NCBI GenBank assembly: GCA_003427395.1
Contig: BFEA01000009.1
Location: 5,965,890 to 6,020,706 of the forward strand
DNA: 54,817 nt
Origin: Chara braunii
Taxonomy: Eukaryota; Plantae; Charophyceae
Reading direction: 5' to 3'
Below, one piece after another: positions 10,026 through 33,543 of the stretch. Within the stretch, counting starts at the first letter, position 1. Each line of letters opens with the position of its first letter. Under the pieces are notes generated by a model. It ran no database searches. It was not told the origin of the DNA and saw only the letters and a list, made by a program, of their open reading frames with translations. Position numbers and translations under genes: made by a program.

Positions 10026-10470
10026 TGTCCTTACCTAAGCGCCAACAACAAGAGGTTCGGGCGCACTGTTAATTGTTGCAACCCGTTTCCTAAAACAAAC
10101 GGGCGCAACAAACTGCACTACGACAAAGAGGTGGGGGAAATCTAACAGAAGAAAAACGAAAATCAGAAAATCTAAGAAAATCTAAAAGGAATCTAACAAA
10201 AAAAAAAAAAAAAAAAAAAAACCCTTGCCTCATGTTGCACCTGCTGCCCGTTTCTCCAAACGAACTCGCGCAGTTTCTTGAAAACGAGTGAGGGAGGCGA
10301 ACTGTGTGGCCGCGTATATTTTCATGTTCTGGTTGTAGATCCATTCGATTTTGCTCATCATAACGATGGAAGTACTGTGAGGACAACCGCCGGGGAGAAC
10401 ACTTTTTGTCCTCTCTCTCTCTCTCTCTCACACACACACATACACACACACACATTCACACACACACACA

Positions 10471-10505
<35 letters not shown>

Positions 10506-10669
10506 ATATAAGTCGAGTAATGTGTATAGTTCAATGTTCTAGAGGTAGATTCATTCAATTTTGCTTATCCCCTTGATAGAACTCAGCCCGTTCGTCTAAA
10601 CGAACGGACAACCAAATAAGCCCCACGAACCGAAGAGGACGGGAGTCACCCAAATTTCACCGGTCGGCA

Positions 10670-13131
10670 AATCTCTCCATCTTTCGTCATTAGAGCAGTA
10701 TTTGCATTAGTAGATGACTTCTCCATCATCTCAGATAATTCAGTAACATCTATATCAACTCTAGAGGAATGCCTATCTGCTTATAAGGAGGCCTCTTAAG
10801 TGAAGGTGAGTTGCCAAACATCTGTAGCACTCACCTCACAGGGGCAACCCCTCACGTTAGACTTGGGCATACCAGTCAAATCCCAAACAGACTTCGAGAG
10901 ATACCTGGGCATCTAGGTATCCTTCGGTAACTGTTCCGGTATACAAGACATGATAGTGGACAATAGAATCAGAGACGCGTGCTCCACATGGTCCAAAGCC
11001 ATGTTTCTTTCCCTTTTTGGTCGTGCTATGGTAATTAATACCTTCATTTCATCAAAAATATGGTAAATCCTTTCAATCAGAACACTCTCACCCTTTACAG
11101 CAGCTAATATTCGCAGACGTTTATCTCGTTGGCTTTAGAAAGGCAAGTCTGAAGCCCAGCGTTTCTCAACAAAGTAAGTTGGGACAAAATTACTGAGAAA
11201 CAGAAATCAGGGGGACTAGGGGTCCTTGACCTACAAGACCAGAGCATAGCTCTCATGGCAAAATGGTCAGTGAGAGCTCTCTTAGCCACCGAACTTCAAC
11301 CATGGATAATTCTATTGCAATACACTCTGGCCCGGGATTGGGGATTATCCAACCCAGACGCTGACTGGCAAGCACTGCTCATGCGCCCATTCACCTCTCG
11401 CACTACCAGTAGCACTTTGACCCCCATCCTCAAAGAATGAGGCAAGTTGATCCCTCAACTGCTGGAACCCTCGAACACAAAATTAAAATTTCTCAATTCT
11501 AGTCTTTTTGAAAAACCTTCCATCAAAGATTCAACTGGTATCCCATTCTTAGTTGCTAAGTCCCCTGGTAATTCAAGACTTAAATGGATGTAGAAAGGGA
11601 TGTGGCTGATTCCCCACATCTGGAAGGAGGATGAACTCAGATGGAAAACTGAAGATGAGATCAGAGAGACTCTCCTAGGATTACGACAAATGGGATTATA
11701 CCGCTCCGTTTTGATATCTACCGTGACCATACCTACATCATGGTGCAAAACTCTTTCCGATCACGTGGCGAAATTCAGCGAGCAGCAATGGTTCAAGTGT
11801 CCGGATAGGGCCAATCTACTTTTTAGAATTGAGAAGATTGGAGAGGACAATACCATCGAGGCCTCGGGATGGACCCCCAAGGACAACAGACTTCAGCAAA
11901 TTGAGGACCCTCATAGCATCTTGCCAGAAAATATGCAGGAAGTACGAGTGCAACACAAGAAGACCTACCAGGGAATGCCCTCCTTCTAGCTACTTATGCA
12001 GACCATACTTGTACACGAATGGAAGGTAGACGTCTTCATGTATGGATGGCATATCACAGACCGAACAAGGGGGGTGACCAAAGTTTCTATTACAGATTAC
12101 TCTGCTAGGATGGGATACAGTTTCCAATCCAACCCAAATGCCCTGCAGGTCAATCTGTCACTCAGATGGCAGTAGAGGATGCCTTCCTTGAGCCTGGATC
12201 CACTACCGTCCAAGTGGCTACTTTTCTTTATCCATATGACTTTTTCTACACTCGAGACCAAAGTAGGAGGACCTCAATGGTTACACCTGCACAGTTGTGT
12301 CCCCACGACTATATGGTGCTCAGAGAAAGGTATGCAACTCTCTGCTCTTTGTGAAGCTTGTCCCACCCCTTGTCTAGAAGATTGGCTACGCCTCTGGTGA
12401 GAGTGCGTCATTGCAAGGTGCTTCTGGGAGTTTTTGGACAACTTGTGGTATAAAGCTTACGGTAAGAAAGGTGTCTGGGACAAAAACTTTATTATCATTA
12501 GTAGAACCAACAAAAACCACTAATCTGATCAGATTACCACCCGAGTACAAATTTTCAGAGTGAGAGTTTTCAAGGTTATTTAGATGGTTCAAAGAGACAG
12601 ACGGTTACCTTAATCTCATCGATTTATTTCAATTTCAGACAGGCAATGAGATCCGACATTATGGCGGACTGGTTCCACACCAAGAGGAAGCACCTCATGG
12701 CTGATGCAGCCAGAGATATTTTTACCACCAGATGGTCTACACAGTACAAATGGGTTGGTTTCTCAGAAGGAACCATACTTTTTTACTCGGACCTGCTATG
12801 GGACCCACCAACAACTTGAACTAGGTCTAGATTAAGTCTTTCCATTTGGCAGCCCCAGGGCTGAGAGGGCCTATAAAGGGGGAACTTTTGCGACAAAGAC
12901 ATGCTCCGCTACTCATTAAAGTTATATGTTTCGGGTTCACGCTCTACACCCAAAACATTCTACTAGGAAGAACATTATTTTTCGACGAGGAACACTGGAC
13001 CCGGTTTCCATGAGCTTACAGTTGGGTAAAGGCCCGAGCATGTCTTGTACCGGGTTGCATTATCGGGGTGTGTTTCCGAGACCCTCTCTTTCTTATGGAA
13101 TGAAACTCACTTTTGTTTAAAAAAAAAAAAA
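10670..13131 (+). mobile_element. 5'-truncated decayed L1-type LINE (RT C-terminus, ORF2 tail, 3' UTR, poly-A)
   Basis: RYLGI, LSLFGRAMVIN and KVSWDKITEKQKSGGLGVLDL...ALMAKW motifs, with an A-tract at ~13119-13131. It overlaps in homology with the first LINE, so it is a separate copy. Confidence 0.75.
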
Positions 13132-13969: not shown

Positions 13970-13973
<4 letters not shown>

Positions 13974-14097
13974 CTGACTACCCCTAATTTCTCCCAACTG
14001 GTCGGATGAAAGCGCCGGCTGATTCCTCCTTAGACAAGTTTTCTACAGGTCAATTTCCCGGTATTAGGGCGACCGACTGGCCCTCGGTCGCCCGATA
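13970..14097 (-). repeat. Remnant of 3' LTR (first 128 bp)
   Basis: Matches 33416-33543 with two differences by eye (CCGGCT/CCGGCC and GATA/GACA). It ends at a (CT)n tract. Confidence 0.9.
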
Positions 14098-14579
14098 AAC
14101 AAGCACTGACCTCCTCTCGACGCCCCCGTCGAGCCCGCTCCGCTAAGATTAGACGAAACGTACCAGGTTTAAGTGGACCACTCGCGCTCTACGCAAGTGC
14201 CTCCTCTTGTCTGTCTGCCGTCTGGTTTTCTCAGGAACTCGGGGGCTGAGAGGGTGCTTCTTCCCTCTCTTATGTCGCGGTCATTCGGATTTTGGTGCCG
14301 GAGTAACCCTTTGCTTCTTTCTCCGTAGGGGAGCTCGTGCGACAGCTGTGTCCCCCTTTCTGATGCGGACTTTCCTCTTAGGCCTTTGTAGAACAAAAAC
14401 CCATTTTCTTTTCTTACCTAGCGTTAGGCCCTTCACTTTCCTGGTTTCTACTCTCTTCCTCTTCCTTGAACTCTCACCTATGTCGAACCGTCTTGGTGGT
14501 CCTTCGTCCACTATCTTAACTTTACCCTTTCCTTTAGGATTTAACGGTCTTAGCGCAGGAGTGGGGTCTCCCTTGACGT

Positions 14580-14730
14580 AAACAACTTCAGTCTAGCTTC
14601 TGCCACATGATCTTTCCACTTTGACCCATCTAGCTCAGCGATCATGTAAGCTCCCCAGCTTAACACACCAACTACACGATAGGGTCCCATCTATCTGTTA
14701 GCTAGTTTTCCGGTCCATATTCTTTCCAAG
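14580..14730 (-). pseudogene. Integrase C-terminal GPY/F remnant
   Basis: Minus-strand translation gives ERIWTGKLANR*MGPYRVV, then a frameshift, then WGAYMIAELDGSKWKDHVAEARLK. Confidence 0.75.
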
Positions 14731-15080
14731 GCGCGTTCTTCGCCCCTGAAATCCTCTCTACAGTATAGTCATAAAGTCGAATCCTGATCAGCCATCGTGC
14801 GATCGTAGGATCCGTCAGACTAAAGTCCTTCTGTAGGACTGAAGCTACGGCTGTAAGGTCTACCCTAAGAACGAATCGTCTCCCGTATATGTAATGCCTA
14901 AAGGTATCTAAGCACCGTAGAACAACCAACACCTCCTTCTTAAACTGACTGTAGTTTCGTTCTGCAGTGTTGAGTGTTCGACTCTCGAACCTCAATAGCC
15001 TCTCTTTGCCTTCGACATCCTTTTGAGAGAGCAATCCCCCAACCGAACATGGTCCAGCATCCGTAGATACTATGAACGGT
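14731..15080 (-). pseudogene. Gypsy RNase H domain
   Basis: FIVSTDAG, RFESRTLNTAERNYSQFKKE, YIYGRRFVLRVD and ARWLIRIRLYDYTVERISGAKN. Confidence 0.9.
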
Positions 15081-16250
15081 CAGGCTGTTTCGTCCTCAAA
15101 GAATGGCACACCCAGAATTTTTCCGCCTTCCTTAAATTCTTCCTTGAGGGACCGCACTGCTAACTCTTGAGGAGAATCCCAGTAGAACTTCTCAGTCTTT
15201 CTAAGAAGTGTGCGCAGAGGTTCCGCCTTTTCCGCATATCCTCGTATAAAAATCCGCCAATAACCAACAACCCCTAAAAACTGGCGAACTTCAGTTGCGC
15301 TGTGCAATGGAGTCGGCCAATTCAACAACTTCTCCAGCTTCCCAGAGTCGGGTCGTCGACCTTTCGCATCGCATATAAACCCTAAAATTTTAATCGTCAA
15401 TACGGCCCATCGACGCTTTGTCCTGCTAACCATCAGGTTAGCATCATCTAGCTGTTCCAAAACAGCGTAAATGTCCGTCAGGTGTTGCTCTACGAACCTC
15501 CTGACGCCAGGAGCGACTTCCATCTCATCTTTCAACACCGGCCCTTTTATCGGAAAGTCGTCGAGGAAAACCTCTACTTTATCAGGGATAAAGTCTTTCA
15601 GAACCGCTACCATGGCTCTCTGAAAAACTGCTACTCCATTGGTCCATCCCATCGGAACCACCATCATCTGCACTAATCCGAGCGGCGTGTGACTGCTACT
15701 CCATTGGTCCATCCCATCGGAACCACCATCATCTGCACTAATCCGAGCGGCGTGTGCATGGCTGTGAGATGCCTATCTCTCGGATCTAATGGTATCTCGT
15801 CATATCCTGAAAATAAATCGCAGACAAAATAAATCGATCTGCCTGCCGCTTCTTCTGCTAGCAGATCAGCGTGCGGTACCGAGCCTACATCCCGAATCGT
15901 CACAGCGTTGACCTTCTGAAGGTCTTGAATCCACTGAATCTTTGCGTTAGGTTTCCTTAAGAAGAACCATCTGTTTGCATAAGCGTTGTCACAAGGCTCA
16001 GCTACGTGTGACGCCATCTTCTCTTTGAGAAAGGAGATCACCTCTTCCTTCTCTTTCTGAGCAAACTTCCACCCTGCATCATTCCACGGCGTATGCGGAA
16101 TCGTGTAGATTATTGCCGGCTTAGCATACCTAGGATCAATCCTTCCTCTCTCCGCGTCACTAAACGCTATGGCTTTGTCGCAAGACCTAAGGACTTTCAA
16201 CACTCGCTCTTTTTCCGGTTCAATCAGATTCCCATCGCCTATGTTCATCT
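15080..16250 (-). pseudogene. Gypsy reverse transcriptase + connection domain
   Basis: IQDLQKVN, CDLFSGYDEI, PMGWTNG, VFLDDF (YxDD equivalent) and EVRQFLGVVGYWRIFI. Frameshifted by a 65-bp duplication. Confidence 0.95.
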
Positions 16251-16649
16251 CCTCTATCCTCTTTTCTGTCAGCCATTGCGGCTCCTTCCTCTTCTTCTCT
16301 TTAATCTCTCTAGCGATCTCTTCTTCAGATACTCCATCATACGCGGATCGCTCTCGTGCTACAGCCGCCAGCTTAACCTTCTGGGCTACTGTCTTGTGTC
16401 TCTTTGGTCGCCCCCCGTAGGGGGCTGTGCCCTTAAAAAAGACACAGATATCATCCCTCCGAATTCCTTATTTTCCGCCTTAGGATAGGCGTTTCTCCCT
16501 ACACGTACGCGAGTCCCTAAATCCTCAACTTCGACTATACGACCTTCTTTTTCTGTAAGTAGGTGCCCATACTTCTTTTCGCGAAAGCTCAGGGACTGAC
16601 TCGCAAGGGGAACTGGTATGCGGCCCTTTTTAGCGAGAACCGCTCTGTT

Positions 16650-17050
16650 CCTCGGGTCACGAGGCTCTACCGTCTCCATCATAATCCGCCCACCGTCTGG
16701 GCGCTTGATGGAAAGCATCTGGCTTCCATCCAGTCGTTCTATAGTAACGGCATGGACGTGACTCAGCCATGTCCGCCCCAATAATAACTCTGCGCTGCAA
16801 TCTCGAACCGCGAAAACAGGCATCGTCACTCTCAGGCGTTCGACCTCAATTGCAGCCTTGTGGCAAACCCCGGTGACCTTTTGCTTTCTTCCATCGACGG
16901 TCTCTATCTCAAATTTGAATTACTTATTAAGATCTAATCCCAATCGGATAGCCAGACCCTCATCGATGATAACAGCCTCGCTGCCGTTATCAATTATTGC
17001 ATGAAGAACTATTTCGTCATTGAGGGTACTCTGTATTGTCCCGCTGCCCA
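16650..17050 (-). pseudogene. Retropepsin aspartic protease
   Basis: AIIDNGSEAVII catalytic motif at ~16990, and downstream ELLLGRTWL. Confidence 0.85.
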
Positions 17051-17599
17051 GGATATAAAACTTGTCAGGGGGCACCCCTTCTATCCTATCTAAGAACACC
17101 GTCGCTGCACGATCCGCCTTGGCGACCACACTTGATACAGCAACAGTGGGTATCTCCTCCTGTTTGGTCGCCATTTGGACCTCGTCGCTCAGGGGAATAC
17201 GTGTCTTACGTGTAATCATGTGCAATTCATCCCGTGTCGGCCTCGAGGCCGCTAAATACTCTAGGATCGTGCACTGCATAGGCTGCCTGAGAGCGCATCT
17301 AAAAGGTTCGACCGTGTCTATGTCATCCAGAGTACTCTTCATCGTGAACTTTCTCGCCCCACGTTTGCATGGGGAAACTATAACTTCTTTTCCTTCAATC
17401 CTTTGTCCATCCTTCTCTGCCATTACGTAATCAGTGTCAGCCTTCTTGGAGGAGGAAGCCCTGGCGGACTTGGTCGCTGCCACCCGTATGGGCGTCATAG
17501 GACTCTCCTCATCCGAAGACAGACTCAGTCTCACGCTTTGGGTTCTCGCAACCCCTTTACCCTTGTTCGGTACTACTCGTCTAGCTTCCACATTCACCT

Positions 17600-19486
17600 T
17601 CATTGAAAGAAACATCGATACATCGTCGAGGTTATCCGCCCACTTGACGTACTTGCGATCATCAAGTACAACAAGCCCCTCATCTATTGCCCGTTTGACA
17701 TCAGGGCAATCTTTCTTGAGGTGATAATCTCCCCTGCAATAGATACAGGAGTTCCTAGGGGTAGGGGGTCGTTCCTCCGCGGACCTAATCGTTGGTCGTC
17801 TCGCATCCTGGTTAGATGGCCCAGGAGATCTAGGGTAGTTTGGGGACTTGGGATACCCTGGCGACACGGGATATCCTCCCCTCTTATACTGCCCCCGTGA
17901 CTCTTCTCTACGATCACCTCTCCCTGTCCGCTCATAACCGCTTCGATACCCATCTCGGCGGTCCTTATCCGACTCCCATCGACCGCTGGAGCCCTCTCTA
18001 TCCCTCGAGTTAAAGTTGCTCGGGCTTCGGTACCCCTTGGCATTTCCACCGTATCTGGGACTGCGAGGGTACTGGTCTCCGGGACTGCGCGGATACTGGT
18101 CGGCTCTGTCTCCTCGACTGTAAGAATCTCCCCCTCGGTACCCATCACGCTAGCGGTCTCTGTCTATGGTATCATCCCGACGCCTCCTCTCTTCGTCCTC
18201 TCTACGTCTCCGATCGTCTTCTTCTCTGCGCCTTCGATCCTCTTCATCCCTACGTCTACGATCATCCTCGTCTCTATGCCGGCGCTCATCCTCATCTCTT
18301 TCCCTCGCGTGATAGTCGGCCAGTGTACGGGGGTTATGGTCTTCGACGCTTCTCCATGGGACAGTATTGCGGCGATCCCATCGTAAGAAATAAGGTGACC
18401 CGGGTTTATCCCAGTATGTAGTTCCGACCTTCGTTTCAAAATTTGCCAATTGCCTTGTCATTGCCTTCATCTTCTCTTGCATCTCTTCTATGATAGCATC
18501 ATTATCCTTTGACCGTAGGGGTCCATCTCTATCCATCATATAACGTCGCTCTGACCAAGGTTTGTCATTGAAATCTGGGCACCTGTCGGTCCCGTATTCC
18601 CGATAGAGGGAAAAATCCCGGCGTTGCATGCCTTTCCAGAGTAAGTCCTTGTAGTCATCTGCCTCAGCCTTCATGGCCAACTTGAGCAATGCAGTGAATT
18701 CTAGCTTATCGTGAGGCGTCTCTCTCAGCACTGCCCGAAGGCGCAGAAACTTTCGCCCTCTCCTTGGGTTAGCTGCTCCAAGTCCCGGATAGAATACTTA
18801 ACATCTTCTAGTTTGTAGAGTTCGTACAGATTGACTTTATAAGTAGCCCATCACCTATCTTTAGGCCGAGCGTCTTTAATCTCTTGACTCAAGCTTGGGT
18901 TCACATTAAATAAGAAGTTGTCTATAATCTCATCCTCTGTCCACTAACTTCGGTATGCGTGCAACTCCCCCTTTTCGATATATTCGGTGATACCACACCC
19001 TTTGAAAACAGGTGGTCTGGTATCCAACTCTGAGGGCTGATGCGAGATGATGACTCTGTCCCTCGCCTCATATGGCAGAGGGTGCGATTCCCCTGTCTCG
19101 GGATAAAAAACCCGTCTGCCCATGGCATCTCTCTCTCTATCTCTCCAAAGCTGCTCTCTAATAAACTGTTCCCTCCAGTCTTCTCCTCCCAGGTAGGCCC
19201 TCTCTTCTCTACGCTCGTACATAGATGAGCGTTGAATAAATGATTCACGCCGAAAACTTGGTGGTTCGGTCTGAATCTCAACCCGCTCTACCGGAGCTGC
19301 TCTGTTGGGCTCGGTGACGACAGCAGGTGCCATCACCTCGGGCTCGCCATCATCCGGTTGCTCTACGCACCTCAGTGGGGCGTTCTGTCGAAGACGCTCT
19401 TTGAGGTCTCACAGAGCCCGGTCCGGCGATGCTCGATACACCACCTGTTCCTCGTCTGGATGTTGCCCCATTGTATCAGATTCCAT
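17600..19486 (-). pseudogene. Gag (capsid-like region, R/D/E low-complexity tract, CCHC zinc knuckle)
   Basis: An ATG at 19486 is in frame with ORF 18944-19336 (RPPVFKGCGITEYI). CIYCRGDYHLKKDC zinc knuckle at ~17706-17747. Several premature stops. Confidence 0.8.
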
Positions 19487-19525
19487 ATACTTCCCCCTCT
19501 TTTGATTTAGCGGTTCAGCACCGAT

Positions 19526-19672
19526 AGCCTGAACCTATGAATGAATCCGCAGCCCGGACCTATGAAAGTATCTGCAGCCCGGACCTATAAAAGAATCCGC
19601 AGCCCGGACCTATGAAAGTATCCGCAGCCCGGACCTATAAAAGAGTCCGCAGCCCGGACCTATGAAAGTATC
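19526..19672. repeat. 25-bp tandem repeat, ~6 copies, alternating A/B variants
   Basis: AGCCCGGACCTATGAAAGTATCCGC alternates with AGCCCGGACCTATAAAAGAATCCGC. Confidence 0.95.
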
Positions 19673-19987
19673 AATCACTCGTCTGTGACCGCTCTCAGGA
19701 TCGCAACAAGTCTCCCAGCCTCGTCTCGTATCTCATGCTCACCCTCGATACCAAAAATCCCTTAGTCAAAATAAAGTTTTCCCTCCTGCTCTTCTATGCA
19801 ACGAACACCTCTCCTAATCTCTATGACTCCGGCTTCTGATGTCCTCACTCTCCTACAAATCCCTGTCGCGATCCCCATCAACTCTTCTCGAGTACGAGAT
19901 CTCAGGTATTCCCGTATACCAACAGACACTCTAAGCGCTAGATCGCTTAACCCATGATGTACAACGCGAGTTCCTGCCCGCGGGTAA

Positions 19988-21013
19988 TCACCCCCTACGA
20001 CCATCAAACTTAAAGTATCGAAGTGCTAAGCCAACCACTGCCTCATTGCTTCTCCCTCGAACCACCTGACGCGGTACAGGAGGTCTGGGTAACCCCTGAA
20101 AGAGCGTAATCCGGGTGTCCTAGATTACCTCCTTACCTAGCGCCAGGAGCCTATCCCGCTCATTCTCAACGACTTCTTCCGAGCACTCCCAACATCGACT
20201 GTAAATCAAATCGCCTTCTCGTTCAACTAGGAGGTAAATCCTAACATCATACACCTCAACTGCAAAGAACCGAACGGTGATAATATAAAAACGTATCTGC
20301 TCCCATCCGCTGTCCACCAACTCGTATGTCACTACTTCGTACGGAATCACTTCTCTCCTACCCAAGGAGCTTAACCTCTCGCAAATTTTCGCTAACACCT
20401 CGTCCGAAGGTCTGTTTCCTGCAAGAAATCTCTCTCTCCTGGCCTCTAGCTCTCACTCTGAGACGGTCGCATCTTTACTCATTCGCGCATCCTATTCATC
20501 CTTAATGGTCTTTTTGAGCTTGCCGTCAGTCTTGACTGTCCGAGCGAGTCTCACTACTGCCTCCCATCTGTTCTGCTCTAGCCCTTGGTATGGAACAGGC
20601 GGCCTAGGCAGACCGTCAAAGACAGTGATGTCGTCGCAGACCTCCACAGTCTTTCCCAAACTTCTGAGCCTCTTTTCCTCTTTTCTCAACACCCAAGCAG
20701 CCCGTCTCCAAGTCCTTCCGTATATACAGAACTCTTCCCTTTCTCTAGGCAGATATATACCGACGTGGTATACCCCAAAATCATGAAACCGCACGGTTAT
20801 AATATAGTATTGATTGCACTCGATCCCACTGTTCTGCACCTGATACTTGATCACTTCATACGGGAAGATCTCTCGCCCGCCCAAATCGCTTAATTCCCTA
20901 AGTACTTTCTCGTGTTCAATTTCGTAAGGACCTCCCCAAACTCCAAATCTCTGTCTCCTTTCGCTAGCTCTGCCTCTGGTAATGGCATCTCTCGCCCATG
21001 AGGTGTTTAACAC
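19988..21013 (-). pseudogene. Accessory ORF of the retrotransposon: two tandem paralogous ~160-aa domains, unknown function
   Basis: ORFs 20492-21013 and 20120-20398 are in the same frame and align (LSDLGGREIFPYEV/LSSLGRREVIPYEV, YIITVRF, GLPRPPVP, EAVVxLA). Confidence 0.7.
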
Positions 21014-22632
21014 TCCGCTGCGATTAGTGTCAGGGCTAGCAGGACTCTGTCAATGGATTCCTCCAAAAACGTATAGAATGTCTCAAAATCGTTTATATCC
21101 CTAAAGTCTTCAATATCTGATAGAGTCTGAAGGTACTCATTCCAATACCGATTGTGTGCCTGGAGTATTCTGAGAACCAAACTTTCTCCTATGATCTCCT
21201 CCAGATCTCTAGCTTCCTCTGCTTCATCCTCCAGGAGCCTCTTGACCTCCCTAGAAGTCTCTCGCCAGACCCTATTTAGAGGTGGCGCGTCAAAAGGGGT
21301 AACGTGCAGCGAATAGTTGATCAAGCACGCACTCTCTTCCCCTACCCAGAGTCCGGTCACTCGCGCCTTCCGTATGGCTCGTCGAGTGTTCTCCGCCTCT
21401 TCTATCACAGTTAATTTCTCGCGATGGACCAGTTGTATGACAACACAAGCGGTTTGCCCATTCAACCTTCCTGTTATACGCATATCACATTTCTCACTAC
21501 TCGTCCTCTTCTATCCCCGTCCTGACGTTCCCTCACCTTTCGTCTCCCTCTCCGATGTCACTGCTTCAGACACCTCGTCTGCTCTCCCGGTCGTTTCGAG
21601 CAAGCCCTCTCGCTCCTGACTAATATGAACTCTCCCTTTCACATTTTCCAGAAAATCAAGCATCCACCTCACGAAAAATTCTCTATCTTCCCTCGAAAGT
21701 CTTTGCAACGCCTTCGTTGCCGCTTCTATCTTACGCAACTCGCTCTCACTCTTTTTCGGTACACAATCCTGGATCTTGACGCCAAGCTCTCTGCCTAGTT
21801 TTACTACTGGTTTAATAATCTGATCATCGACTCTCTTTTTCCTTTCTTCCAGATCCTCCATCACCTACAACCCATCTTTCTTGTTCTCATGAACCTCCTA
21901 TCACATATTGCTCCTAGCTTCTGAGGGTGTCTCGTCCCTTATTATCTCCAAGCGCACCCTTCCTTTAACGCACACGATCACCTCATAAACCACCCAACTC
22001 TGTACTGTCAACTCCCTCAGTGCTCCTAGTCTTTGCTCCCGTATGACATCTTCTACGAGTTCTTTGAACTCGTTGTCCGACAATTCTTCCTCTATGCTCA
22101 CTCTTAAGAGGATCTGTAGGGTCTTCTTGTCACACGTTAATTGCCTAGAGACAACCCGAGCGTAGGGAAGACGTCGCCGAGGAGAGGGACTACTCGTCTC
22201 AGTTCCTCGAGTAGCTACTCGGGGGTTCCTCTCACTCACGCTCCTCCAGGACTCGGCCCCTCTGCGGTCCCACCAAAGTGAATAAGAGGCTCGAGGTCTA
22301 TATCGATACAGTTGCTGCTCGTGTTTCGTCATGACAGGGTAATCATACTCTACTCCTGGCCTCCGCTACCGTCTCATCGAAGAACAACTCAGCGCGTAGG
22401 TACCCTGCTGACCACACCATCACTCATAAGTTATCTTGGTCTGAAACGTGACACATTCGAGAACTCCCGGTCTATATTCTCGGATAAATTCCCTGGCTTG
22501 CAGAAAACTCTCCTGCTCTGTTAGGATGTCGTCTATGTGAGCTCTAAGTAGGACTGTAATCGTGAAGCCCTCGTTCACTAATTGCCTCCTCACACTCACC
22601 CCCGTAATCGTCCGACTTGGCATCTCCTCCAC
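21007..22632 (-). pseudogene. Accessory ORF of the retrotransposon (~540 codons in one frame, interrupted by TGA/TAG), unknown function
   Basis: ORFs 22420-22632, 21901-22332, 21511-21864 and 21007-21483 share one reading frame. Some segments are charged and coiled-coil-like. Confidence 0.55.
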
Positions 22633-25600
22633 TAGCTATGCCCAAACAGGTATCTCAGGTCCTCCAGCCCGATGAACTTGTCTTCTGCGCGTCTTCGACA
22701 ATAGTGAATCAAATCTGCAGGTTTTAGGCAGTCTATCCAGGAGGTAGCATCTAACAAGTCTCTCTCGATCTCCTTACCATGAGGTCCCCACCTTACGCAA
22801 ATTGAGTAATATGCTTCTAGGAATTGACGCTCTAGTCCCCGTAAGAACGCGTGCTGAGTGTGGTCGGCCGCTTTCGTCAACCAGTCCACGCCTCTGTAAG
22901 TTTGTTCTATAACAAACTCAGGTAACACCATCCGCCAGCTCCCTAGAGGATGGTAAATCTGTGGAGGAGAACCGATCACAATTCTCGTGGTAAAAGGCCT
23001 ACTTCCAACGGCGCTAAGCAGTTGTCTTCTCACTATTGTCTCTGCTAAAATCTCATATTTCCACCAGATCCTGCTAACGCCTACAAGGGTCAGGCCTATC
23101 TCTATATCTTTCTCCTTATCAAACACAAGATATCCTATACCCTTCACCTGCCGGGGAGACCCCTGGTCCTCCGTAATCACTGTCCACAAGAAGACCCCTC
23201 TCGCCAGCCAAGTACCGAAATGTCGGATCGGCACCCAATTTCCTACCTCTAAGCGCACCGGAAGCGGAACGTTATACCCCAGCGCTGTCTCTCTTGGCCC
23301 TATGAAATCTATCTCTCTACGAGCCTCTGACCCTCGTGTCACTATATACGTCACCCATATGTCCCAATCGCTCCTCATTACCGCATGTCGCTCAACCCTT
23401 GCCACTCCAATTCTCTCCGACACACTCGATCTTACGACACCACTACCTTCTCAGACAACTCTACCGGTTAGGCTCAAGACAATCGAGTAGGTGTTGTGCA
23501 CTCTCCCGACAGCTCCATGGAAGTATATGGTAAACTCGACATATCTCTGGCCTCTCCGTATCTCCAGAGCGTGCTCGATCATAAGTCCGGCGCGCAACGT
23601 CATCCATCGCCTCTTCTTCCCAGCCGCCTGTCTTATCTCGTCGTAAGGAGAGAGTCACTCTCAGTGTGTCCCTGTCTGCCATCCCTACCTGTCCTTTGTC
23701 TAAAGTTTGTCCCCGTGTTTACTAACCGACCTCCCTTTACTCCCCTCTCTAAGCTAGACCCGGATATACCCTGCTTCTAGCTGTCTCGCGCATCAGGCAT
23801 ATCCTCATCTCCGTCCTCGTCTAACCTCCGTCCCCATGGGATATCCTCCTGTCCCTCGGCCTGAAGGAGGTGTCCCCAGCCGTCCTCCTGCAGCGCCTCT
23901 CCACCTATCTGCTCCCGACGATCCTCTGTCACCAGCTCTCCCCAGCCCTGGTCCTGCTCTCCCCAAGGCTCTATCTCTCCAACAGTCTCCCACTCTCTAT
24001 CGTCAGCGTACCAGCCGAGCTCCTTCCTATCTGGATATATACTCTGGTAATGCTCCTCCAACTCCCAGATAGAGATGAGGGGAGTGGGTTTGTCACTGGG
24101 AGTCTCACTAAAGAGCCGTCCGACTCCCTCCAAGCTATCTACAGGTCTCTGGACCTCCCTCTCCAAGGCTAGCCAGAACTCTAAGGGCTGATGGGGGTAG
24201 AAGGAGTCCTGGTCTCCTGTGGGCGCTAGAGCTCGTATGAACTCTATAAGCTGAAGTCCTCTCTCCCCTATGAGCGGCCCTCCGATAAACTGAGCGTACT
24301 CAACCCAATCCTGGTCAGCCAGTCCTCTCCTGAATCCACCTAACTCAATACTGGCTGAATACGTCTCTGCAATGTGACTGAGGCCCCAGAGTTCCTCTAC
24401 CACAAATACAGGGAGTCCCACCCTCACTCGTACCGAGGGGAGGGGAAAAACTCCCCCGATCTGGAGGGTCGTCCTCGACTCGCCGATCGGATCGTGCAGT
24501 CCCTCTCTATCTGCACGGAGGCTATCTACCATCTGAGATAGGATCAACCTAACCTCCAGCTCACAGGACCAGAAACCATGCACCAAACCCTCAAAATAGG
24601 TCGTGGCACTTACCGATCGTGAATAGTAAATATGTCCTACGACCTCTATGCTCGTAGTCCCAGGTGCCCGCCAGCGCTGAGCATCCTGCTGAAATGTCTC
24701 CACCGCATACACCCACAGGTGCACGTCCTGCCCCAACCGTATGGATCTCCAAGCCGAATGGAGCCAGGGCCCAGCCACGCTCCTCGCTGGCAGATCGAAC
24801 TCTACTACGTCGGGCTCCACTGTCTCAGGCGGTCTGGGCCATCTGGCACTGTCGATCGCGAGCTCCACTCTATCTGCCTCCTCTACCATCGAATTTCCTA
24901 TAGCTACTGGTTGTCGTCAATCACAGCCTCTCTCGGTAGCCACCACTAGCTCTCCTCATCCGGACACCACCTCCTAGGTCCGGACGGCGACTCCTATCCT
25001 GGGGAAGTGAGCGTCGGTGGCGTCGATCTCCTCGTCGTCAGTCTCCCCCTCCGAGTCGACCCAGTCTGGCTTCCAAGTGCCCTCGTCGTCCTCACGCTCC
25101 CACCCCTCGTCGTCGAACTCGTCCTCGACGCGGTATGGTGGAAGACCTATGGACTGGTAATAATCTGTCAACTGATACTCAGGTATCAGTGTCCTAAACT
25201 CGTCACTCCACCAGCTCCACCAGTCATCCAAAAGAGGAGGCCTATGCACGTAACGCTCTCGGGTCCCGCTCGGAGTTCCCGGTCCAGCAAATCCCAAGTG
25301 TAAGAAGGAATTCCCCACAGGGGATCCTCGTCTGGCGCAATCGAACGGATCAGCTCCACGAGCTGGATCCTCTCGTCACCCCAACGAGGTCCGGCTGTTA
25401 CTAAGGAATAGTAGATGCAATGGGTGTCAAACTCGTCTCTCGAAAGACGCTCGAGCTCCCTAACCTCAAGATAAACCTCTACTATACCTCCTATCCCGCC
25501 GAAGACGGAGTCCACCACGAACGCTGGTACGATCGTCCTCAACCAAGTCCCTGCGTGCGGGAAGAACCCGTCGTCCGCTACAACAAGCTCTCCGTTAATG

Positions 25601-25995
25601 TGCAAGTGGGGTCTCCCGTGAAACAGGGTCAGCGGGTCCTGCCCGTCGTCCGTACGGAAGGCCTCGACCTCCGCCTGCAACAGTCGCTCCGCGGCGCAGA
25701 GGATGTCGCTCTCTCCCGACGTGGCAAGACTCAAGACAACCCCTTTGGTTGTCTCTGAATCCAGGTATAAATGCCCTCACACTAAACCTCTCCCGAGACT
25801 GCTATGGATCTCCCTACGCAACCACAACCAAGCACCTGGGGACACGATGATGGATCTCCAACTAACCTGTCCGTCCCATGCGGTCGGTCGGGACGGGAGC
25901 GTGAACTCCACTAGGCCTCCCTCTATGAGTTCCGGGGGCTCTATTTCTCATGCACGACCGGCTTCGTATGCCTCTATGGCTTCGGATGGCATCAT
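22632..25995 (-). pseudogene. Accessory coding region with three paralogous ~300-370-aa units, unknown function
   Basis: Units at ~25995-24974, 24889-23777 and ~23680-22632 share VEFxLP, WRSI, GH[LI]Y, PxFV[VI], GP..G and L[IV]E.IR.[LI]AP motifs; the third unit shares only some of them. Confidence 0.7.
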
Positions 25996-26242
25996 CCGAG
26001 TTGCTGTCGGGTGTAGGGGTAGTCCTATCGCGCCTGAAAAGGGGTATAATCCTAAGAAAATTTTGGCAGGGCTCCGCCTCCCCCTGTAGGGATGGGGTTT
26101 GGGAGGTGATCCCTAAGTAAGCGCTACCTAGCTACGTCCAAACTGACATCTATCTTTACCCTGACATCTATAAGGCAGAATCCCTAGCTTGAATTGAGCT
26201 AACGAGCCTCCTATTCAAGTTCCCTCGAATAGTAGGCACGTA

Positions 26243-26742
26243 CACAATTCGAGAGAAACCTGCTCTCGGCGCTCCCGCGCACGCTCTCAGCGCGCAGGGG
26301 CTGCCAACAACTTAAGAACCTACGAAATACTAAACTGGAACTCTTTCCCCAAATTTTTCGAACTTTTTTTTATTTTTAAGGAATTTTAATAGTTTAATTT
26401 AACAAAAATTCAAAATTAGTCTCAAAATTTGAGGTACTTTGGTCCTAGAATTCAAGGATGGTTAAAAATGTCAGAGGAAATCAGTCTCGAATTGCACAAT
26501 TCGAGAGAAACCTGCTCTCGGCGCTCCCGCACGCGCTCTCTGCCCGCAGGGGCTGCCAACAACTTAAGAACCTACGAAATACGAAACTGAAACTCTTTCC
26601 CCGAATTTTTCGAACTGTTTTTTATTTTTAAGGAATTTTAATAGTTTAATTTAACAAAAATTCAAAATTAGTCTCAAAATTTGAGGTACTTTAGTCCTAG
26701 AATTCAAAGATGGTTAAAAATGTCAGAGGAAATCAGTCTCGA
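26243..26742. repeat. Tandem duplication (~250 bp x2) in the AT-rich leader of the Gypsy element
   Basis: CACAATTCGAGAGAAACCTGCTCTCGGCG...GAAATCAGTCTCGAATT occurs at ~26243 and ~26495. Confidence 0.9.
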
Positions 26743-28184
26743 ATTTCCCTCGATTTCTCGACCTTTCCAAGGATTTTTACTGAATTTTTTTAAAAATAAT
26801 TCGCAAAAATACAATCAAAACTTGAGAAAATCCTTTTACCTCACCCGACCTTTAGAGAACTTAATTTTTTTACCCTTAGTAACTTCCCTTTTGTCTTTCT
26901 TCCTTATCTCTACCCTTTTCTAGAATTTTTTATATTTATCAAAATTGAATTAGAATTTTTTTTTTAAAAGGTAGAAATAATTTTTCTTTTTTTGTCCCTC
27001 TCCGTTAAGAGAGGTTTCTCTTATTAGTAACTCTGTTTCCTTTATTTATTTTTAATTAAAGTAATTTTTATGAATTTAGAAACTTTTTGGCAGCACTTCG
27101 CCTCCCCCCGTTGGGATGGGGTTCGGGCGAAGCCCTCAACAAACACTAAGAGATGCAGAAAATGATGAAAAATAATCCAAAAGATATAAACGTATTTTAC
27201 AAAATTTTTAATTATTTTTTTAATAATTTATATCCTTTTAAATAGCAGTATATTCAAAATTTTGACAAAATTTTCAAAATTTTCGGCAGCGATCCGTCTT
27301 CCCACGCGGGGATGAAGTCTGGGGCAGTCGTCCCTTAATCCACTGTCCGAAGAACCCGGAAAAGCGAACTTCAAACAATTATAAACGAAAAATTGCTATT
27401 TTAATAAATTTTTACTAATTTTTATCGATAAATATTTAAAATTATAGAGAAATACAAGGTTTTAAGCTTTCGCAATCATTTAGTTTTACTATAAGCTTTG
27501 GGGTTGCATTCGCCCCCTAAACCCTTAGTTAGGGTTTCTCTTAATTAGGGTTTAAGTTTCCTGCGCGCGTTCGCGCGCCCACCACAAACCCCCGTTTATC
27601 TTTAAAAAAAAAAAAATTGAACCCTTATAAACTCAAAAGGAAATCCTATCGGATTACTTTTGGTAACTGCCTTTGTTTTAATTTTAAATAAAATTACAAA
27701 AAAAATCAATTATTCCTTTGTTTTTCTTTCTTTTCTTATCTGTACGTCCCTGCCGTCAACCCAAACAGCGTCCGTATTTCCCGCTCAAAATGTCGGGAAA
27801 AGAACAAGGACCAACTTTGGTCCCAGCGGGTTTCTCCAGATTTTTCTTCTTCCAACAGAAAATTAATAAAAACCAAAATTCGTTATTCTCGAATTTAAAA
27901 TTGAAAAATTAAAAAAAAAACAATATCTCTCCTTTTCACCGTTAGAATTTCTCAAAAAACATATCAAAATGTTCGCCTCGTCGAGAGGACGAACTTTGTT
28001 CCCTACGAAGTTTTCACGAAAATGCGCGGATGATGAGATATTTGAAAAAAACTGCATTTGAAATTAATAAAGATTAGAAAATATCCACTAATCAAACTAA
28101 TTAAAACTGATCACCTCATGGCTAATCAGCCACGGCACCCCCGTTAATTGGGGAAGGCCGAGGCCTTGGGGGTGTTGTTCCCCT

Positions 28185-28201
28185 TCCCGGCAACGGCGCC
28201 A
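28185..28201 (-). promoter_or_regulatory. Primer-binding site complementary to the tRNA-Asp 3' end
   Basis: The minus strand reads CA-ACTT-TGGCGCCGTTGCCGGGA. This is complementary to the plant tRNA-Asp(GUC) 3' end ...CCCGGCAACGGCGCCA and is the PBS typical of Athila-type elements. Confidence 0.9.
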
Positions 28202-28205
28202 AAGT

Positions 28206-28773
28206 TGTGAGGAAACCCGGGGAGGGGAACCTACAGCTCGCTGAAGCCAGGGGCAATGCCGCCTGTCACTCGGCGCGCCCACTTCCGAGGTCCTCAGCGG
28301 CAGATAGGGTGTTGGGACTTATTATCGTCTGTTACCCCTGCTCGCAGAAGCACTTTAATCTAGCGTTATCAGATCATAATTCTCTTGAGTAATTTGATGT
28401 AGATTGAGCCTGATCATGAGGGTTGACTGTTTTGCCTCTAAGACAAATCACTCAAAAAAAATAAGTTCGATTTTAAAAGGGAGAGTGCACCAATCAGGCG
28501 AATCGATTTCCAGAGAATAAACAGTCCCTTCAGCATGCTTAATTACCAGTATGCCATGAAGCCAAATCAGCAGGCTCGGCCAGGTAGTTAATGGGTCAAT
28601 CAACGGGTCCTACTTACAGAAAGGGAATAGTTCATTCCACACACTCGATTTGCAGAGAGCCAGTGGTACTGATGATCTCCTGCCAGCAGCAGGGGTTGGT
28701 CCTACTCTCTCTTTCTATCTCTCTCCCTTCCGCTGCTCTCTCTCTCTCTGTTCTCTCGCTGTTCTCTCTCTTT

Positions 28774-28857
<84 letters not shown>

Positions 28858-28972
28858 NNNNNNNNNNNNNNNNNNNNNNNNNNNNNNNNNNNNNNNNNNN
28901 NNNNNNNNNNNNNNNNNNNNNNNNNNNNNNNNNNNNNNNNNNNNNNNNNNNNNNNNNNNNNNNNNNNNNNNN

Positions 28973-29061
<89 letters not shown>

Positions 29062-32000
29062 CTCTCTATCTATCTCTCCCCCGCAGTTCTTTCCATCTCT
29101 CTTCTATCAACTCTAACTTCTTCGCTGCCCCGTGTTTCCAAGTCCTCAGCCATGTTACTACTGCCTCTCCACTTCACACAGGATGAACCTGCCCGTGATT
29201 AAGGCCAGGAGCACGGGATTTTAGAAGTGTCTCATTTCCCCATACTTGTTGAGTTACCGTGCATTCAAAAGAATTGCGACCGCATGATCTCCTGGCATTA
29301 TGTTCATTCGATCGCAAAATCAAGATCCGTACGGTCAGAATTTGCGTTTTCAAGTCCTCTTTGAGAGTGTGGGGTCTGATCTACAATTGGTGCTGGCTGC
29401 GTAGGATGCCGGTCAACGTTTCGTCATCATATCATATTGGTATGCAAAAAAAGAATCAGTCCAACTTAACACATTCATCGGAAAAACTTTTCAGAGGAGA
29501 TGTTCATACTTTGTTTGACCTTTGATGGTTGCTCTCTCTGAATTCGACAGAACTAGATCAGAGAGTAGGATGAAGATCTGCACACGCCACTTTACTGTTT
29601 AATTTTTCCTCACCCATACGGCTCTCCCTCTCTGCACTCTCCCTCTCACACTCTGCGCATTCTCTCACACTCTGCGTATTCTCTCTCTCCCACACTCTCT
29701 CTCAGCCTGCTCCCCCTTGCGCGTAGGTTCCCAGTCTCGTCACTACCACTCACTCACGACGCAAGTCCCGTTTCACAATGATCCTCGCGAGCATGTGTGA
29801 GCCTTTCTCTCTCTCTCCCTGCATGTGTATTGCCTGTCTCTCTCCCTGTGTGTGTGTTTCGTGAATCTTTCTCTCCTTCTCTCTCTCTCTCTATATGTAA
29901 GGAGGCTTTTTACACTTGTTGTGTGATCGCATCAACCCTTCTCATGTGTCGCGGCCACTTTCACGTGCTGGTCGTTATACAGTGTCCATAAATGTGTTCA
30001 TGCAGTGGCAGTAAAAAAAAAAAAAATATTCAACTCTCTTTTACTTCGTGCATGCAGAGTGCTGAAACGGCCAGATCAACCCCCGCTTTTCTCCAAGTAG
30101 GAGGGCCGATGAGACGGACAGATTAGCGCCCAGTCTCCACCATGTATCTCAACCGCTTTAGAGGATAGATTAATGTCAAATACTCATCATGTGTTCGAAC
30201 AGCAACAACAACGAAGTTAACCCCCCCTGTTTTCCTCCGAGTATAAAGAGTGGTGGAACGAGCAGATCAGCGCCCGGTCTCTACCATGTATCTGGGCCTG
30301 CCTTAGAGGGTAGGGTCGGAGCTCATATTCTGCATAGTTTATCAACCGAAGGTCTAAACGTATTTGTGCCGCTTCTGAGAACAGATTTAAAGCTCCAAAC
30401 CTGGGAATCATGCCGTGGGCATACCACGCCCCGAATGCTAGAAGTATCTGTCGGGTTTTGAGGGCAGACTCAAAGCTCTTAATCGGAGTGGAATGCAACG
30501 AGCACATCAGACCCGAAAACTGAATGCTCAAAAATCATAATCGAAAGAGTGTACTGCGGGGACATCAGGTCCGAAAATTGAATGTATCTGCCCTGCTTTG
30601 GGGGCAGGTTCAAAGTTCATAATGAGAAGAGTGTACTTCGGGCTTATCAGGCCCGAAAACTGAATGTATCTACCCCGTTTTTTAGGGGAAATTCATAACT
30701 CTTCTCGAAAGTGTGCTGCGAACATATCAAGCCAACAATCTGTAAGTATTTGTCCCGTTTTAGAGGGCGAATTTGAAACTCATACTCCGAAGACTATGAA
30801 ATGGACAGATTTGAAACTCGTCTTATGAGGGGTATGCTGCGGCACATTACTCGCAAAAATCTGAATACAGTTGACCACTTTCGAGGGCGAATTCAGAGCA
30901 CGCTCCTTGAGAGTATGCTACGGCATATTACACACAAAATCCGCATACACTTGACCGCTTCTAAGCACGGATTCCGAACTCACATTCTAAAAAAAAAACT
31001 GCGGAACCGATATAACAGGTACTCACCCAAAACTCGGCATCAGCTCCATTAGACGACACATCCTTACCGATTCAGACGGCGTCACCAAGAGTCCGTCAAC
31101 CTTTCACCTGCGACTACATTCAACAGGCATTCGTTGCCTCCCTAATCATCGCTTGTAACGGGCAGCAAAAGCCTCGAACGGCAGACGAGCGACTCTAACC
31201 TTGACAGAGCTCCCATAGCACGTTGTTCTAGTGTACCCTTCTCTCGAGGGACGAACTCTCCCATTCATGCAGTGCACAACAGAACACTGTCTTCTCCCTG
31301 ATTCTCTCATCCGCTTCCGTTCCCCCGTCGATTTGTCGAATACCAGCAGCGCACATCAGGTGCTCTGTGTCCCCCTCTTGGCCACTGTTCGCACCTCTTC
31401 AGTCATCGTCAAGAGAGGGCTCCGCACACCTGGCACGTTTCCTCCTCCTGTTCCGAACTGGGCTGCCATGGGGGCGGGGTACACCTGGCAAGCTTTCCCC
31501 CCGAGTCACTCCCGTTCGAATCCCTTTCCATGTCAACGGGTCTCTCATATATGCAGTAGCTACCCTGGGCATGGCGTTCAGTGGACCAGAAGCACCTGAG
31601 AAAAATGCCGGCCGACAGGCCTGTAAACCTGGTGCCAACGGCATTCCGGGATTTACTAGCGGTACCAGTACTTCGGGTAACCAGTACTGGACATGGCCCT
31701 CAGTAGACCAGAGGCACCGAGAAAACGTAGGCCCATAGGCTCGAAAACCTGGTACCAATCGCATTGTGGGATTTACTTGCGGTACAAGTACTTCGCGCCA
31801 GGTCAAAGGTACCAGTCGAAAACACAACAGCAGTACCCGAAAACGATACCAGATCTCCACTACAGTACCAACAGCAACCCTGGGACAGTACCAGGAACAA
31901 ACAGTATCGCAGGTCATCCGCGTCACGGCCCAGGATCGACGTTAATAGGCTCGGTGTTCTGGATACCGTGGCTGCTCTGAGCCATCAATCGCAGCAGTTC

Positions 32001-33543
32001 AATGAGATGCACCGTACAATGAAACAAGTACCGTTCCAACACCGTGTCTGTCCCATACAATTTTCGGGGCTGAAAATTCCCAGTCCGAACTGCAGCAGCC
32101 TCAAACTGGATTGGAGATCCGTATTCGAAAGTACCATCGCCGAATCCATCGGTACCATGCCAACCCCGAACCAATATCAAGCGCGCAACACGTAGAATAT
32201 CGTCAAGTGCCGTAGTGCAGCGAAAATTTCGAGCCTGGCTCGAACCTGAGTGTCGTGCCTTTATACCGAAACTCAACCCATGCCGACGTCAAGGTAGTAC
32301 CACCCTGAAGATGGCAGCCGTACTGAACACGACAATAGTTTGTCAACCTTAAAAAGGCTCCGAACCGTAAAATAATTATCGTAGTCGCGTCGAAGCTGAG
32401 ATAGATTGCCATGGTGGTCCCGAACCTGAAAACGAGTTACCAAGGTCGTCCCTAACCCTGATGAAACATTCCGGAGTAGTCGTTCTGAACCTAATAATAA
32501 AACACCCCGATGTGCCCGAACCTGAAGCACGCCGAAGCCGAACTCGTGCTGCCCGGCGGTAATAATTCCGAACCTGTCCCGAGCCATTCGTGTCGAACCG
32601 AAGCGGTGATCACACCGACGCAAAAGGGTCGTGGAGCGCAATTAAACAACATAGCGGCAACGCCCCGCGTCCGTCAATCCCGCACTCATATCACACAGGT
32701 TACGGTAAAGTTAGAAATCAGGGAAATCAGGTAAGCCATGCGTACAAATCCCAATCTTCGCCATATAGCGGAAATCATCAGAATTGAAGTAAATGAATAA
32801 TCGGGGGTTAATTCCGACCGCGGATAAATGTAGTAAAATTACGCCCATCAGTTATTAATCATGGTTTTCCTTCATTCTTATTATTTTTATTTACTTTTCT
32901 TATTTCCTAATTTTTTTATCGAAAATAACAAAAATAGAGGCAATCTTGCCAAAAATAAATTCCGATGGCATTCAATGAAGCGTTGAAAATCCTTGGTTTC
33001 CCTTTTCTTTTTATTGTTTTCGAATTTTTTTCATACATTTAATTCTATTATCAAAAATGTCGATAATAGAGGGCGACCCTATTAAAATTCAAATATCAAA
33101 TAATTTGAATAAATTGGAAAATATCCCGTTTTTCTCTCCTCTTTTGTTGTCTTTAATTTCTTTTCTCATTCTTAATTTTAATATTAAATTTTATTAAATG
33201 TGGGGCTCCCTCCTCGCGTCCATGGGACACTGTGGAAGGGCCTCGTCAAGGCTCATCCTGAGTTAAAAGCCCCGCGGCCAGTCGTTGTCGGGACAGGCCT
33301 AGAGCGAGCGGAAAGGAGGTAGTAAGTAAGGTAACTGTGAGGGCGGCGAAGCGGTAACCCCCTTCGCCATTTCTCTAGGGCTAGTCCTGGCGGTTGACAC
33401 ATCCGAAATTAGGGGTGATCTGACTACCCCTAATTTCTCCCAACTGGTCGGATGAAAGCGCCGGCCGATTCCTCCTTAGACAAGTTTTCTACAGGTCAAT
33501 TTCCCGGTATTAGGGCGACCGACTGGCCCTCGGTCGCCCGACA
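28206..33543 (-). repeat. 5' LTR, ~5.3 kb
   Basis: Bounded by TG...CA (TGTGAGG at 28206; CCCGACA at 33543). One end abuts the PBS and the other is duplicated at 14097. It contains (CT)n, an N-gap and internal repeats. Confidence 0.8.
30400..31030. repeat. Degenerate ~78-bp tandem repeat inside the LTR
   Basis: Recurrent CATCAGGCCCGAAAACTGAATGTATCTG..CGTTTT.AGGGCAGA.TCAAA..TCATAATCG..AGAGT.TACTGCGG units. Confidence 0.65.

Follow-up and report, generated by a model that had tools for sequence, protein, structure and literature searches.

Extra open reading frames (ORFs) are common in plant Ty3/Gypsy retrotransposons, usually one or two per element and with their function left open (PMC6317226, PMC7264820). 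Those of at least 250 codons, reported in 3,372 plant Gypsy elements, are mostly orphans unrelated to one another (PMC6317226), the review devoted to such genes treats mainly 3′ ORFs (PMC7264820), and the giant Ogre elements are described with one or two (PMC6431247). Here we describe a Ty3/Gypsy element in a 54,817-nucleotide stretch of the Chara braunii genome (contig BFEA01000009.1, positions 5,965,890 to 6,020,706; hereafter the window, in whose numbering all coordinates are given). The element lies on the minus strand, and its sense strand carries at 19676-25995, between the primer binding site (PBS; 28200) and the gag ATG (19486), a block of about ten separate short ORFs (A to I, with D split into D1 and D2) of 94 to 370 codons. 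It is highly probable that these are about ten orphan genes and that the arrangement is a family-wide architecture. About ten tandem ORFs upstream of gag, with old paralogue pairs among them, would require unusual translation of both the block and gag. No match to a described transposable element (TE) ORF was found, nor any description of these Chara ORFs in a literature search that did not extend to the Chara genome paper and its supplements; the accessible portion of PMC13468544 does not mention Chara.

An earlier note on this DNA, made from the sequence by eye, had proposed some 6.3 kb of sense-strand coding between the PBS and a Gypsy gag, in ORFs that are not gag, pol, or env, and both proposals are well supported. 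Nine stop-to-stop sense frames of at least 100 codons occupy 78% of 19676-25995, whereas 1,000 dinucleotide shuffles average 7% and never exceed 37%, and the surrounding element is typed by Pfam, which recognises its protease (PR), reverse transcriptase (RT), and RNase H (RH). No family in Pfam, PHROG, or NCBIfam has a meaningful score for any ORF of the block. With a codon model trained on the element's gag-pol, the proposed frame outscores the others in each of the 13 coding segments examined across A to I, in several by a narrow margin; the model also scores the AT-rich leader positive, such that only the contrast between frames is informative, and it gives no decision for the first 14 codons of ORF C. 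By the same model, codon usage in the block follows that of the element's own gag-pol. All of the homology detected is on the sense strand, with none antisense.

The ORFs are all on the minus strand and lie close together. ORFs A (24974-25995; about 340 codons), B (23777-24889; 370 codons, intact), and C (22632-23682; about 350 codons) form one protein family; A and B have acidic tails, the window copy of A has two stops and a frameshift near 25229, and C has one internal stop with an uncertain start and early frameshift. D1 (22343-22623; about 94 codons, with a one-base frameshift near 22422 in the window copy) is a paralogue of the C-terminal domain of D2 (21901-22332; 143 codons, intact). 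ORF E (21511-21861; 116 codons, intact) is charged and its frame is assigned by the codon model, which gives ORF F (21007-21483; 158 codons, intact) +13.7 versus −9.1 and −18.9. ORFs G (20492-20988; about 165 codons, with a frameshift near 20960, where sister contigs show an indel) and H (19988-20482; 164 codons, two internal stops) are paralogues of each other, and ORF I (19675-20004; 109 codons, one internal stop; codon model +3.0 versus −4.3 and −13.2) overlaps the end of H by 17 nt. ORFs E, F, and I are singletons with no paralogue in the block, and I, for which no homologue was found, is the weakest of the set. Successive gaps from A to I are 84, 94, 8, 10, 39, 27, 18, 9, and −17 nt, so that from C onward the ORFs are spaced by 8 to 39 nt or overlap briefly.

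The same sequence had been read in the earlier note as three or four long genes whose interrupting stops are mostly decayed codons, and it could equally be cast as a polyprotein broken by decay in the window copy; we regard this as scarcely credible. It is correct that 22632-21007 and 21013-19988 each lie in one frame, with D2, E, and F sharing the first and G and H the second, but the evidence does not support either as a single gene. Most of the junction stops are real gene ends, and decay accounts for only about six stops and four frameshifts in about 2,000 codons, a load comparable to that of gag-pol. Elsewhere, A and B are each annotated as a protein of its own, with ends that agree; G and H can be aligned over their full lengths, and three stops fall within 39 nt 3′ of D2. 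D1 ends in a different frame from the one earlier proposed: over its last 25 codons (22420-22343), both paralogy with the end of D2 and the codon model (+1.6, versus −5.2 for the earlier frame) choose another. Long genes draw some support from the E/F stop, which is near the edge of the stretch examined in sister contigs, and the 62% threshold used there could miss a stop inherited by a subgroup. The excess of TAG and TGA, previously attributed to C-to-T decay, is background composition; these make up 19 of the 21 stops on the earlier path and 259 of the 299 stop triplets counted over the three frames together (P 0.45).

Internal paralogues, which had also been suspected, are evident. A and B are 28% identical over 252 aa and G and H 45% identical over 161 aa, end to end, both far above 100 shuffles; both halves of D1 align to D2 above 500 shuffles, D1 and the second half of D2 having like ends. 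ORF C matches the A/B profile, and its alignment to A3 with hhalign (probability 72%, E 3.5e-5, 128 columns) makes its C-terminal 200 residues a third, distant copy of the A/B domain. Identities at codon positions 1/2/3 are 0.52/0.76/0.15 for A/B, 0.53/0.61/0.28 for D1/D2, and 0.57/0.68/0.34 for G/H; for scale, a distant relative of the element, L001, gives 0.76/0.83/0.45 against the element's RT. Among the paralogues in the window, third positions are thus near random, whereas first and second positions are kept, and these old internal duplications (A/B/C, D1/D2, and G/H) have been retained at the protein level. The earlier note had named a ratio of nonsynonymous to synonymous substitution near 1 as a refutation; the codon-position figures point to protein-level constraint among the paralogues. 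A single domain common to all of the ORFs was considered and set aside, as D versus I, F, and C and G/H versus C, A/B, and D are not significant. The N-terminal 28 to 30 residues of D2, which precede its D domain, form a motif shared with Gag at 18407-18324 (50% identity; third positions 0.36; score 82, where shuffles reach at most 46), which hints that the two proteins have a partner in common.

Every named homologue of the block ORFs is from Chara braunii, and none was found outside Chara. Annotated homologues of A and B are 46 to 59% identical to them, with the same start and stop. ORF B has eight such homologues (52 to 59% identical), six of which begin at the same Met and all of which end within three residues of the same place; a B profile run over 1.84 billion representatives gives seven matches, all C. 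braunii, six of them A-type or more distant. For ORF A, gene models P0009 and P0012 share its initial Met and are uninterrupted where the window copy has its two stops and frameshift, and P0014 has the same last residue. In P0009, an A homologue (55% and 72% identical to window A) is followed by a Gag/protease 63% identical to that of the element, in the same order and at another locus, which ties ORF A to the same kind of element elsewhere in the genome. P0009, P0014, and P0005, which fuse accessory ORFs to Gag/protease or to other sequence, are likely annotation artefacts over elements, and at least 14 of the Chara genes annotated as 'hypothetical proteins' belong to retrotransposons, as accessory genes or chimeras, rather than to the host. 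In a 17-row tree, window A groups with A types (99/98) and window B with B types (84/95) from other loci, and because A and B forced into one clade are rejected (p-AU 7e-90), the A/B duplication is, as judged from these sequences, older than the subfamily split, with both genes retained. Metagenome and viral scans found no relative of the A/B family, B and G had no usable neighbour in the ESM Atlas, and the A-family profile matched no PDB sequence at E 10. The C. braunii annotation includes natural A and B copies that are intact, which opens function, fold, and reinitiation to direct test.

Sister contigs show that the block belongs to the family. Contigs from three DNA runs (two samples, one study) were placed on the block at ≥80% identity, and 2,145 to 2,277 per run fall on it, most of them less than 95% alike and together giving depth in all 30 bins; a one-off insertion, which would have left the block absent from sister copies, is not borne out, and these contigs and the C. 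braunii homologues together support the family-wide multigene accessory block that the earlier note had proposed. The contigs also mark gene boundaries. Similarity is lost at 24969-70, 23682, 22343, and 21898, each no more than 5 nt from a proposed ORF end, including divergence at the start of C (23682) and losses at the end of D1 (22343) in ten contigs and at the end of D2 (21898) in six. Within 21490-22440, 26 sites differ in at least 62% of the sister depth, and none of the seven stop codons tested is among them; two of the seven, the E stop included, are near the edges of this stretch, which makes the E/F boundary the least certain. Of the 16 majority-different sites in D2, 9 are synonymous (P 0.03 versus an expected 0.30). 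The acidic tail of ORF A (24876-25323) is part of a far more abundant repeat, with contig depths of 2,200 to 13,000 compared with 70 to 1,700 elsewhere in the block.

The element containing the block has the Gypsy layout, with LTR (long terminal repeat), PBS, and gag-PR-RT-RH-integrase (INT) order. The 5′ LTR (28205-33542, minus) is about 5.3 kb long, beginning with TG at 33542 and ending with CA four bases ahead of the PBS, its 3′ end being placed from the PBS alone; microsatellites and a gap of Ns lie within it, and it may harbour a nested insert. The PBS (28183-28200, minus) is of the tRNA-Asp type, its first 16 bases being those of the FIDEL PBS, which is printed as complementary to tRNA-Asp (PMC2844528). 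The gag-protease ORF (16386-19486, minus; PF13975 E 5.6e-8) has a CCHC knuckle, six internal stops, and a frameshift near 18720, and ends at the same place as gene model P0009. It is followed by RT and RNase H (14735-16467, minus; PF00078, and PF17917 E 1.4e-23), with one stop and a 65-nt duplication at 15627-15756; Asp, Glu, and Asp are present in RNase H at the positions that we take to be the expected motifs. The integrase core is deleted and without a Pfam match in this copy, leaving a C-terminal scrap 3′ of RNase H (14550-14690, minus; PF22938 E 0.0039, under the family cutoff). A basic 103-codon frame 3′ of the scrap (14592-14281, minus) is favoured by the codon model, has no Pfam match, and is possibly a 3′ accessory ORF or integrase tail. 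Only the first 127 nt of the 3′ LTR persist (13970-14096, minus), matching the start of the 5′ LTR with two differences; it breaks off at a tandem pair of 109 nt accompanied by CT microsatellites (13970-13737), apparently the edge of another repeat that cut or replaced it. This copy of the element is dead because the integrase core is missing and gag-pol has seven internal stops in 1,572 codons. An Rfam scan of 13000-33600 gave no match.

A 2.2-kb AT-rich leader (25996-28182, minus), markedly poor in AUG, separates the PBS from ORF A. It includes a tandem pair of 252 nt and a donor-like site at 26839, and three sites resembling acceptors precede ORF A by no more than 100 nt. Sense ATGs number 7 in the leader versus 21.3 in shuffles and 16 in A and B versus 30.6 (0 of 300 shuffles as low in each case), and 53 in C to I versus 65.2 (3 of 300), whereas gag-pol is enriched (109 versus 84.9) and the antisense strands show no ATG loss. 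A 42-nt motif occurs twice in the leader (27126-27085 and 26102-26061, minus), the second copy 65 nt before ORF A; its folds are not significant, and it is possibly a promoter or RNA signal. Just upstream of the gag start are six 25-nt units (19523-19672, minus), each with a U-rich run, an acceptor-like YAG|G, and a small hairpin (six matches versus 0.11 expected; hairpin z −2.1), which we infer to be splice acceptors, although they could instead be a packaging or internal-entry signal. The gag-protease and RT ORFs overlap in a −1 relation at a U-run slippery heptamer (16440-16434) with a hairpin 8 nt downstream (together 16410-16440, minus; z −3.7, 0 of 200 shuffles), a predicted −1 frameshift. 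The frame change is at the corresponding position in L001 (its positions 655-700), whose RT is just 69% alike. A frameshift 3′ of the protease, rather than 5′ of it, is unusual for Gypsy elements.

Ribosomes loading on an LTR-driven RNA would scan the AUG-poor leader and start at A, with the later ORFs reached by leaky scanning and by reinitiation over the short gaps. Such serial translation, suggested by the AUG scarcity and the gaps, strikes us as an evenly balanced proposition; reinitiation is described in caulimoviruses, where it is driven by TAV (PMC5902531), and in SART1 (PMC10275272). The gag start is 8.7 kb downstream of the PBS and behind ten ORFs, and gag therefore needs another route; splicing from the donor-like site at 26839 to the acceptor-like repeats ahead of gag may yield the RNA for gag-pol, and RT would then be reached by the −1 frameshift after the protease.

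As to function, the best explanation of the locus as a whole, and one that we hold tentatively at somewhat less than an even chance, is that about ten orphan genes are read serially and likely keep the element's RNA and DNA from silencing. That the accessory proteins help the element past host silencing, or protect its RNA, is by itself a possible but more doubtful proposal, which we rank ahead of particle or ribonucleoprotein (RNP) cofactors; it draws on the analogy with soluble, fast-diversifying accessory proteins of TEs and viruses, among them the TE-encoded anti-silencing protein VANC (PMC13317346) and others (PMC9289625, PMC10309623). A bolder version, in which the block is a virus-like polycistronic accessory operon of ten serially reinitiated genes, one perhaps its own reinitiation factor and at least one of an undescribed fold, together arming a 25-kb element against silencing, seems to us rather unlikely.

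Several observations qualify these proposals or weigh against them. The antisense strand of the block is also open, 54% versus 29% in shuffles (11 of 1,000 as high), and the identities by codon position were computed on alignments selected for similarity at the protein level, a choice that tends to produce the pattern seen. No contig covers the whole block, so the same gene order in other full-length copies would be an extrapolation, and contig joints and loose ends suggest that block content varies between copies. In ORF E, 2 of 8 majority-different sites are synonymous, which is neutral-like, as are the 36 best-supported coding sites among sister contigs (11 synonymous), an outcome expected if these are the window copy's own decay. 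Annotated homologues were found for A and B only; there are none for C (at near lengths) or D to F (at shorter lengths), and G, H, and I were outside that search. The block retains 69 sense AUGs, too many for leaky scanning alone, and the splice sites come from a crude pattern scan that fires inside ORFs too. No TAV homologue or RNA-binding family was found in Pfam, or in BFVD as searched with the A-family model alone. RNA reads, one of the checks proposed earlier, give little: two (<90% alike) on the whole block in run X5, and two and none on 951 bases in X6 and X7, a weak result with no control gene.

The structure of the A family bears on the alternatives without choosing decisively among them. 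An AlphaFold model from 15 sequences (pLDDT 72, pTM 0.71) has a beta-rich N-terminal half followed by helices, and the fold comparison that the earlier note had suggested yielded no clear match: Foldseek found none at E 0.001 in PDB or BFVD, and the best VIA match was Z 4.4, with none at Z 5 among 48,161 chains. The model was searched whole, with its two domains together, and the lack of a match is not proof of a new fold. SENP/Ulp1 proteases, GNAT acetyltransferases, and (with Foldseek only) levivirus coats recur among the weak matches, and none stands out. One reading of A/B/C is a Ulp1/SENP (CE-clan) SUMO-protease fold, now decayed, with a role in binding or shielding SUMO-like marks like that of the KIU and VANC genes of Mutator elements. 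Seven of the 50 VIA matches listed are of this clan and have the longest alignments (121 to 139 residues; best 1euv, Z 4.1, root-mean-square deviation [rmsd] 5.0), SENP5 heads a second VIA look (Z 3.8, rmsd 4.9, 126 aligned), and plant Mutator-like elements carry Ulp1 domains (PMC13317346). These are weak matches overall (Z 3.3 to 4.1, rmsd 4.7 to 5.8), and a Z of about 4 is under the 7 to 8 typical of the tool for unmatched models and is tied by the GNAT matches. The His-Asp-Cys triad is absent, as no His or Cys occupies an invariant or near-invariant column in the 15 sequences, and there is neither a Peptidase_C48 match nor, as noted above, a PDB sequence hit; a CE-clan origin is thus quite improbable. 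Particle or RNP cofactors, which would assemble with Gag or chaperone, export, and package a genomic RNA of more than 20 kb, are somewhat less improbable, though still unlikely. They would account for the motif common to D2 and Gag and have a precedent in CERV, an accessory protein for export encoded by the LTR element Cer1 (PMC10309623). The recurring levivirus coats point the same way, but at E 0.17 or worse and TM of about 0.2, and they are not among the 50 matches listed by either VIA run; moreover, A and B are strongly acidic (B has a net charge of −40), and ten genes exceed the needs of a particle.

The block could also be a captured piece of a virus not yet described or of a second mobile element, long fixed, hitchhiking, self-expressed, and of little use to the Gypsy element. 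An abrupt change in GC content at the 5′ edge of the block (from 0.38 to 0.58), the abundance of the repeat containing the A tail, and the joining of an A homologue to another family's protease in P0014 are all consistent with capture; yet no insert-marking repeats or target duplication are seen, codon usage matches that of the element's gag-pol, D2 shares its motif with the element's own Gag, and the scans returned no viral or metagenomic relative, which makes capture improbable. Chara has plasmodesmata. Some of the proteins might move the element through these between cells in the manner of plant virus movement proteins, an idea raised for plant Env-like ORFs (PMC7264820). There is no match to a movement-protein family beyond one BFVD row at E 0.51, and hydrophobic segments are almost lacking, so we consider movement very improbable. 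The sole segment hydrophobic enough for a membrane is in A (KD19 1.77), and a membrane or Env-like role for the block therefore looks unlikely.

Elsewhere in the window, an uninterrupted 597-codon frame at 51061-52854 (plus) has dyskerin/Cbf5 domains (DKCLD, TruB, and PUA) and is either a host gene or a retrocopy. Decayed frames at 4000-7000 (plus), three pieces of which have no Pfam match, presumably resemble the reverse transcriptase of long interspersed nuclear elements. At 35434-38522 and 42471-43544 are extended, degenerate arrays of GATT and about 7.5 tandem copies of a 136-nt unit.

Among known systems, Ogre elements of the Tat clade, to which the earlier note had compared this one, are likewise giant, with LTRs of close to 5 kb, additional coding sequence in the sense orientation 5′ of gag, and a Gag-PR ORF apart from RT (PMC6317226; PMC6431247; PMC4408406). 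The likeness in size and 5′ coding is real, but the Ogre features testable here are absent. The extra ORFs of Ogres often have a plant mobile domain (PF10536, in 57%), an intron of about 274 bp separates Gag-PR from RT, and an RNase H is added; the Chara element, in a charophyte host, has about ten orphan ORFs, with no Pfam match to PF10536 in any of them or in 15 family members, and its Gag-PR and RT ORFs overlap at the −1 slippery site with its hairpin, where L001 also changes frame. Pfam finds no additional RNase H between PR and RT, where TatI and TatII have one, and L001 has the same layout; the region between RH and INT, the site of the additional RNase H of Ogre/Tat, is deleted in the window copy. 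The native RNase H core, degenerate in Ogre/Tat according to PMC4408406, here keeps its acidic residues. The element is thus Ogre-like in layout while failing these Ogre features.

Scans for RT relatives found L001 as the only real one; a second match, L002, is a bacterial deaminase-like frame and a chance hit. The RT and RNase H motifs give us the impression, which we hold as an assumption, of being Ylt1-like. Athila and Calypso elements share the tRNA-Asp PBS and a long LTR and leader (PMC2844528), a likeness drawn by PBS and layout rather than by an RT tree; their extra ORF follows pol and is Env-like, whereas the only candidate between pol and the 3′ LTR here, where the copy is deleted nearby, is the basic 103-codon frame. 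The Ylt1-like lineage is reported from fungi, with no 5′ gene cassette in the description given in PMC2864245. The caulimovirus 35S RNA, whose closely spaced ORFs are read by reinitiation with TAV and whose downstream ORFs are served by a spliced form (PMC5902531), is a functional analogy only, as the Chara element is an LTR element with a PBS, and no homologue of TAV or of a caulimovirus movement or coat protein was found. The VANC and KIU genes of VANDAL Mutator elements are likewise diversifying TE-encoded accessory proteins beside short noncoding repeats (PMC13317346), but they belong to a DNA transposon and have no sequence match to the Chara proteins, the weak Ulp1-like fold hint in the A family being the only link. 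Burro elements of planarians are also giant Gypsy elements with much extra coding capacity (PMC6431247); theirs is in recognisable domains of one polyprotein of about 5,000 aa, whereas that of the Chara element is in many small, separate orphan genes before gag.

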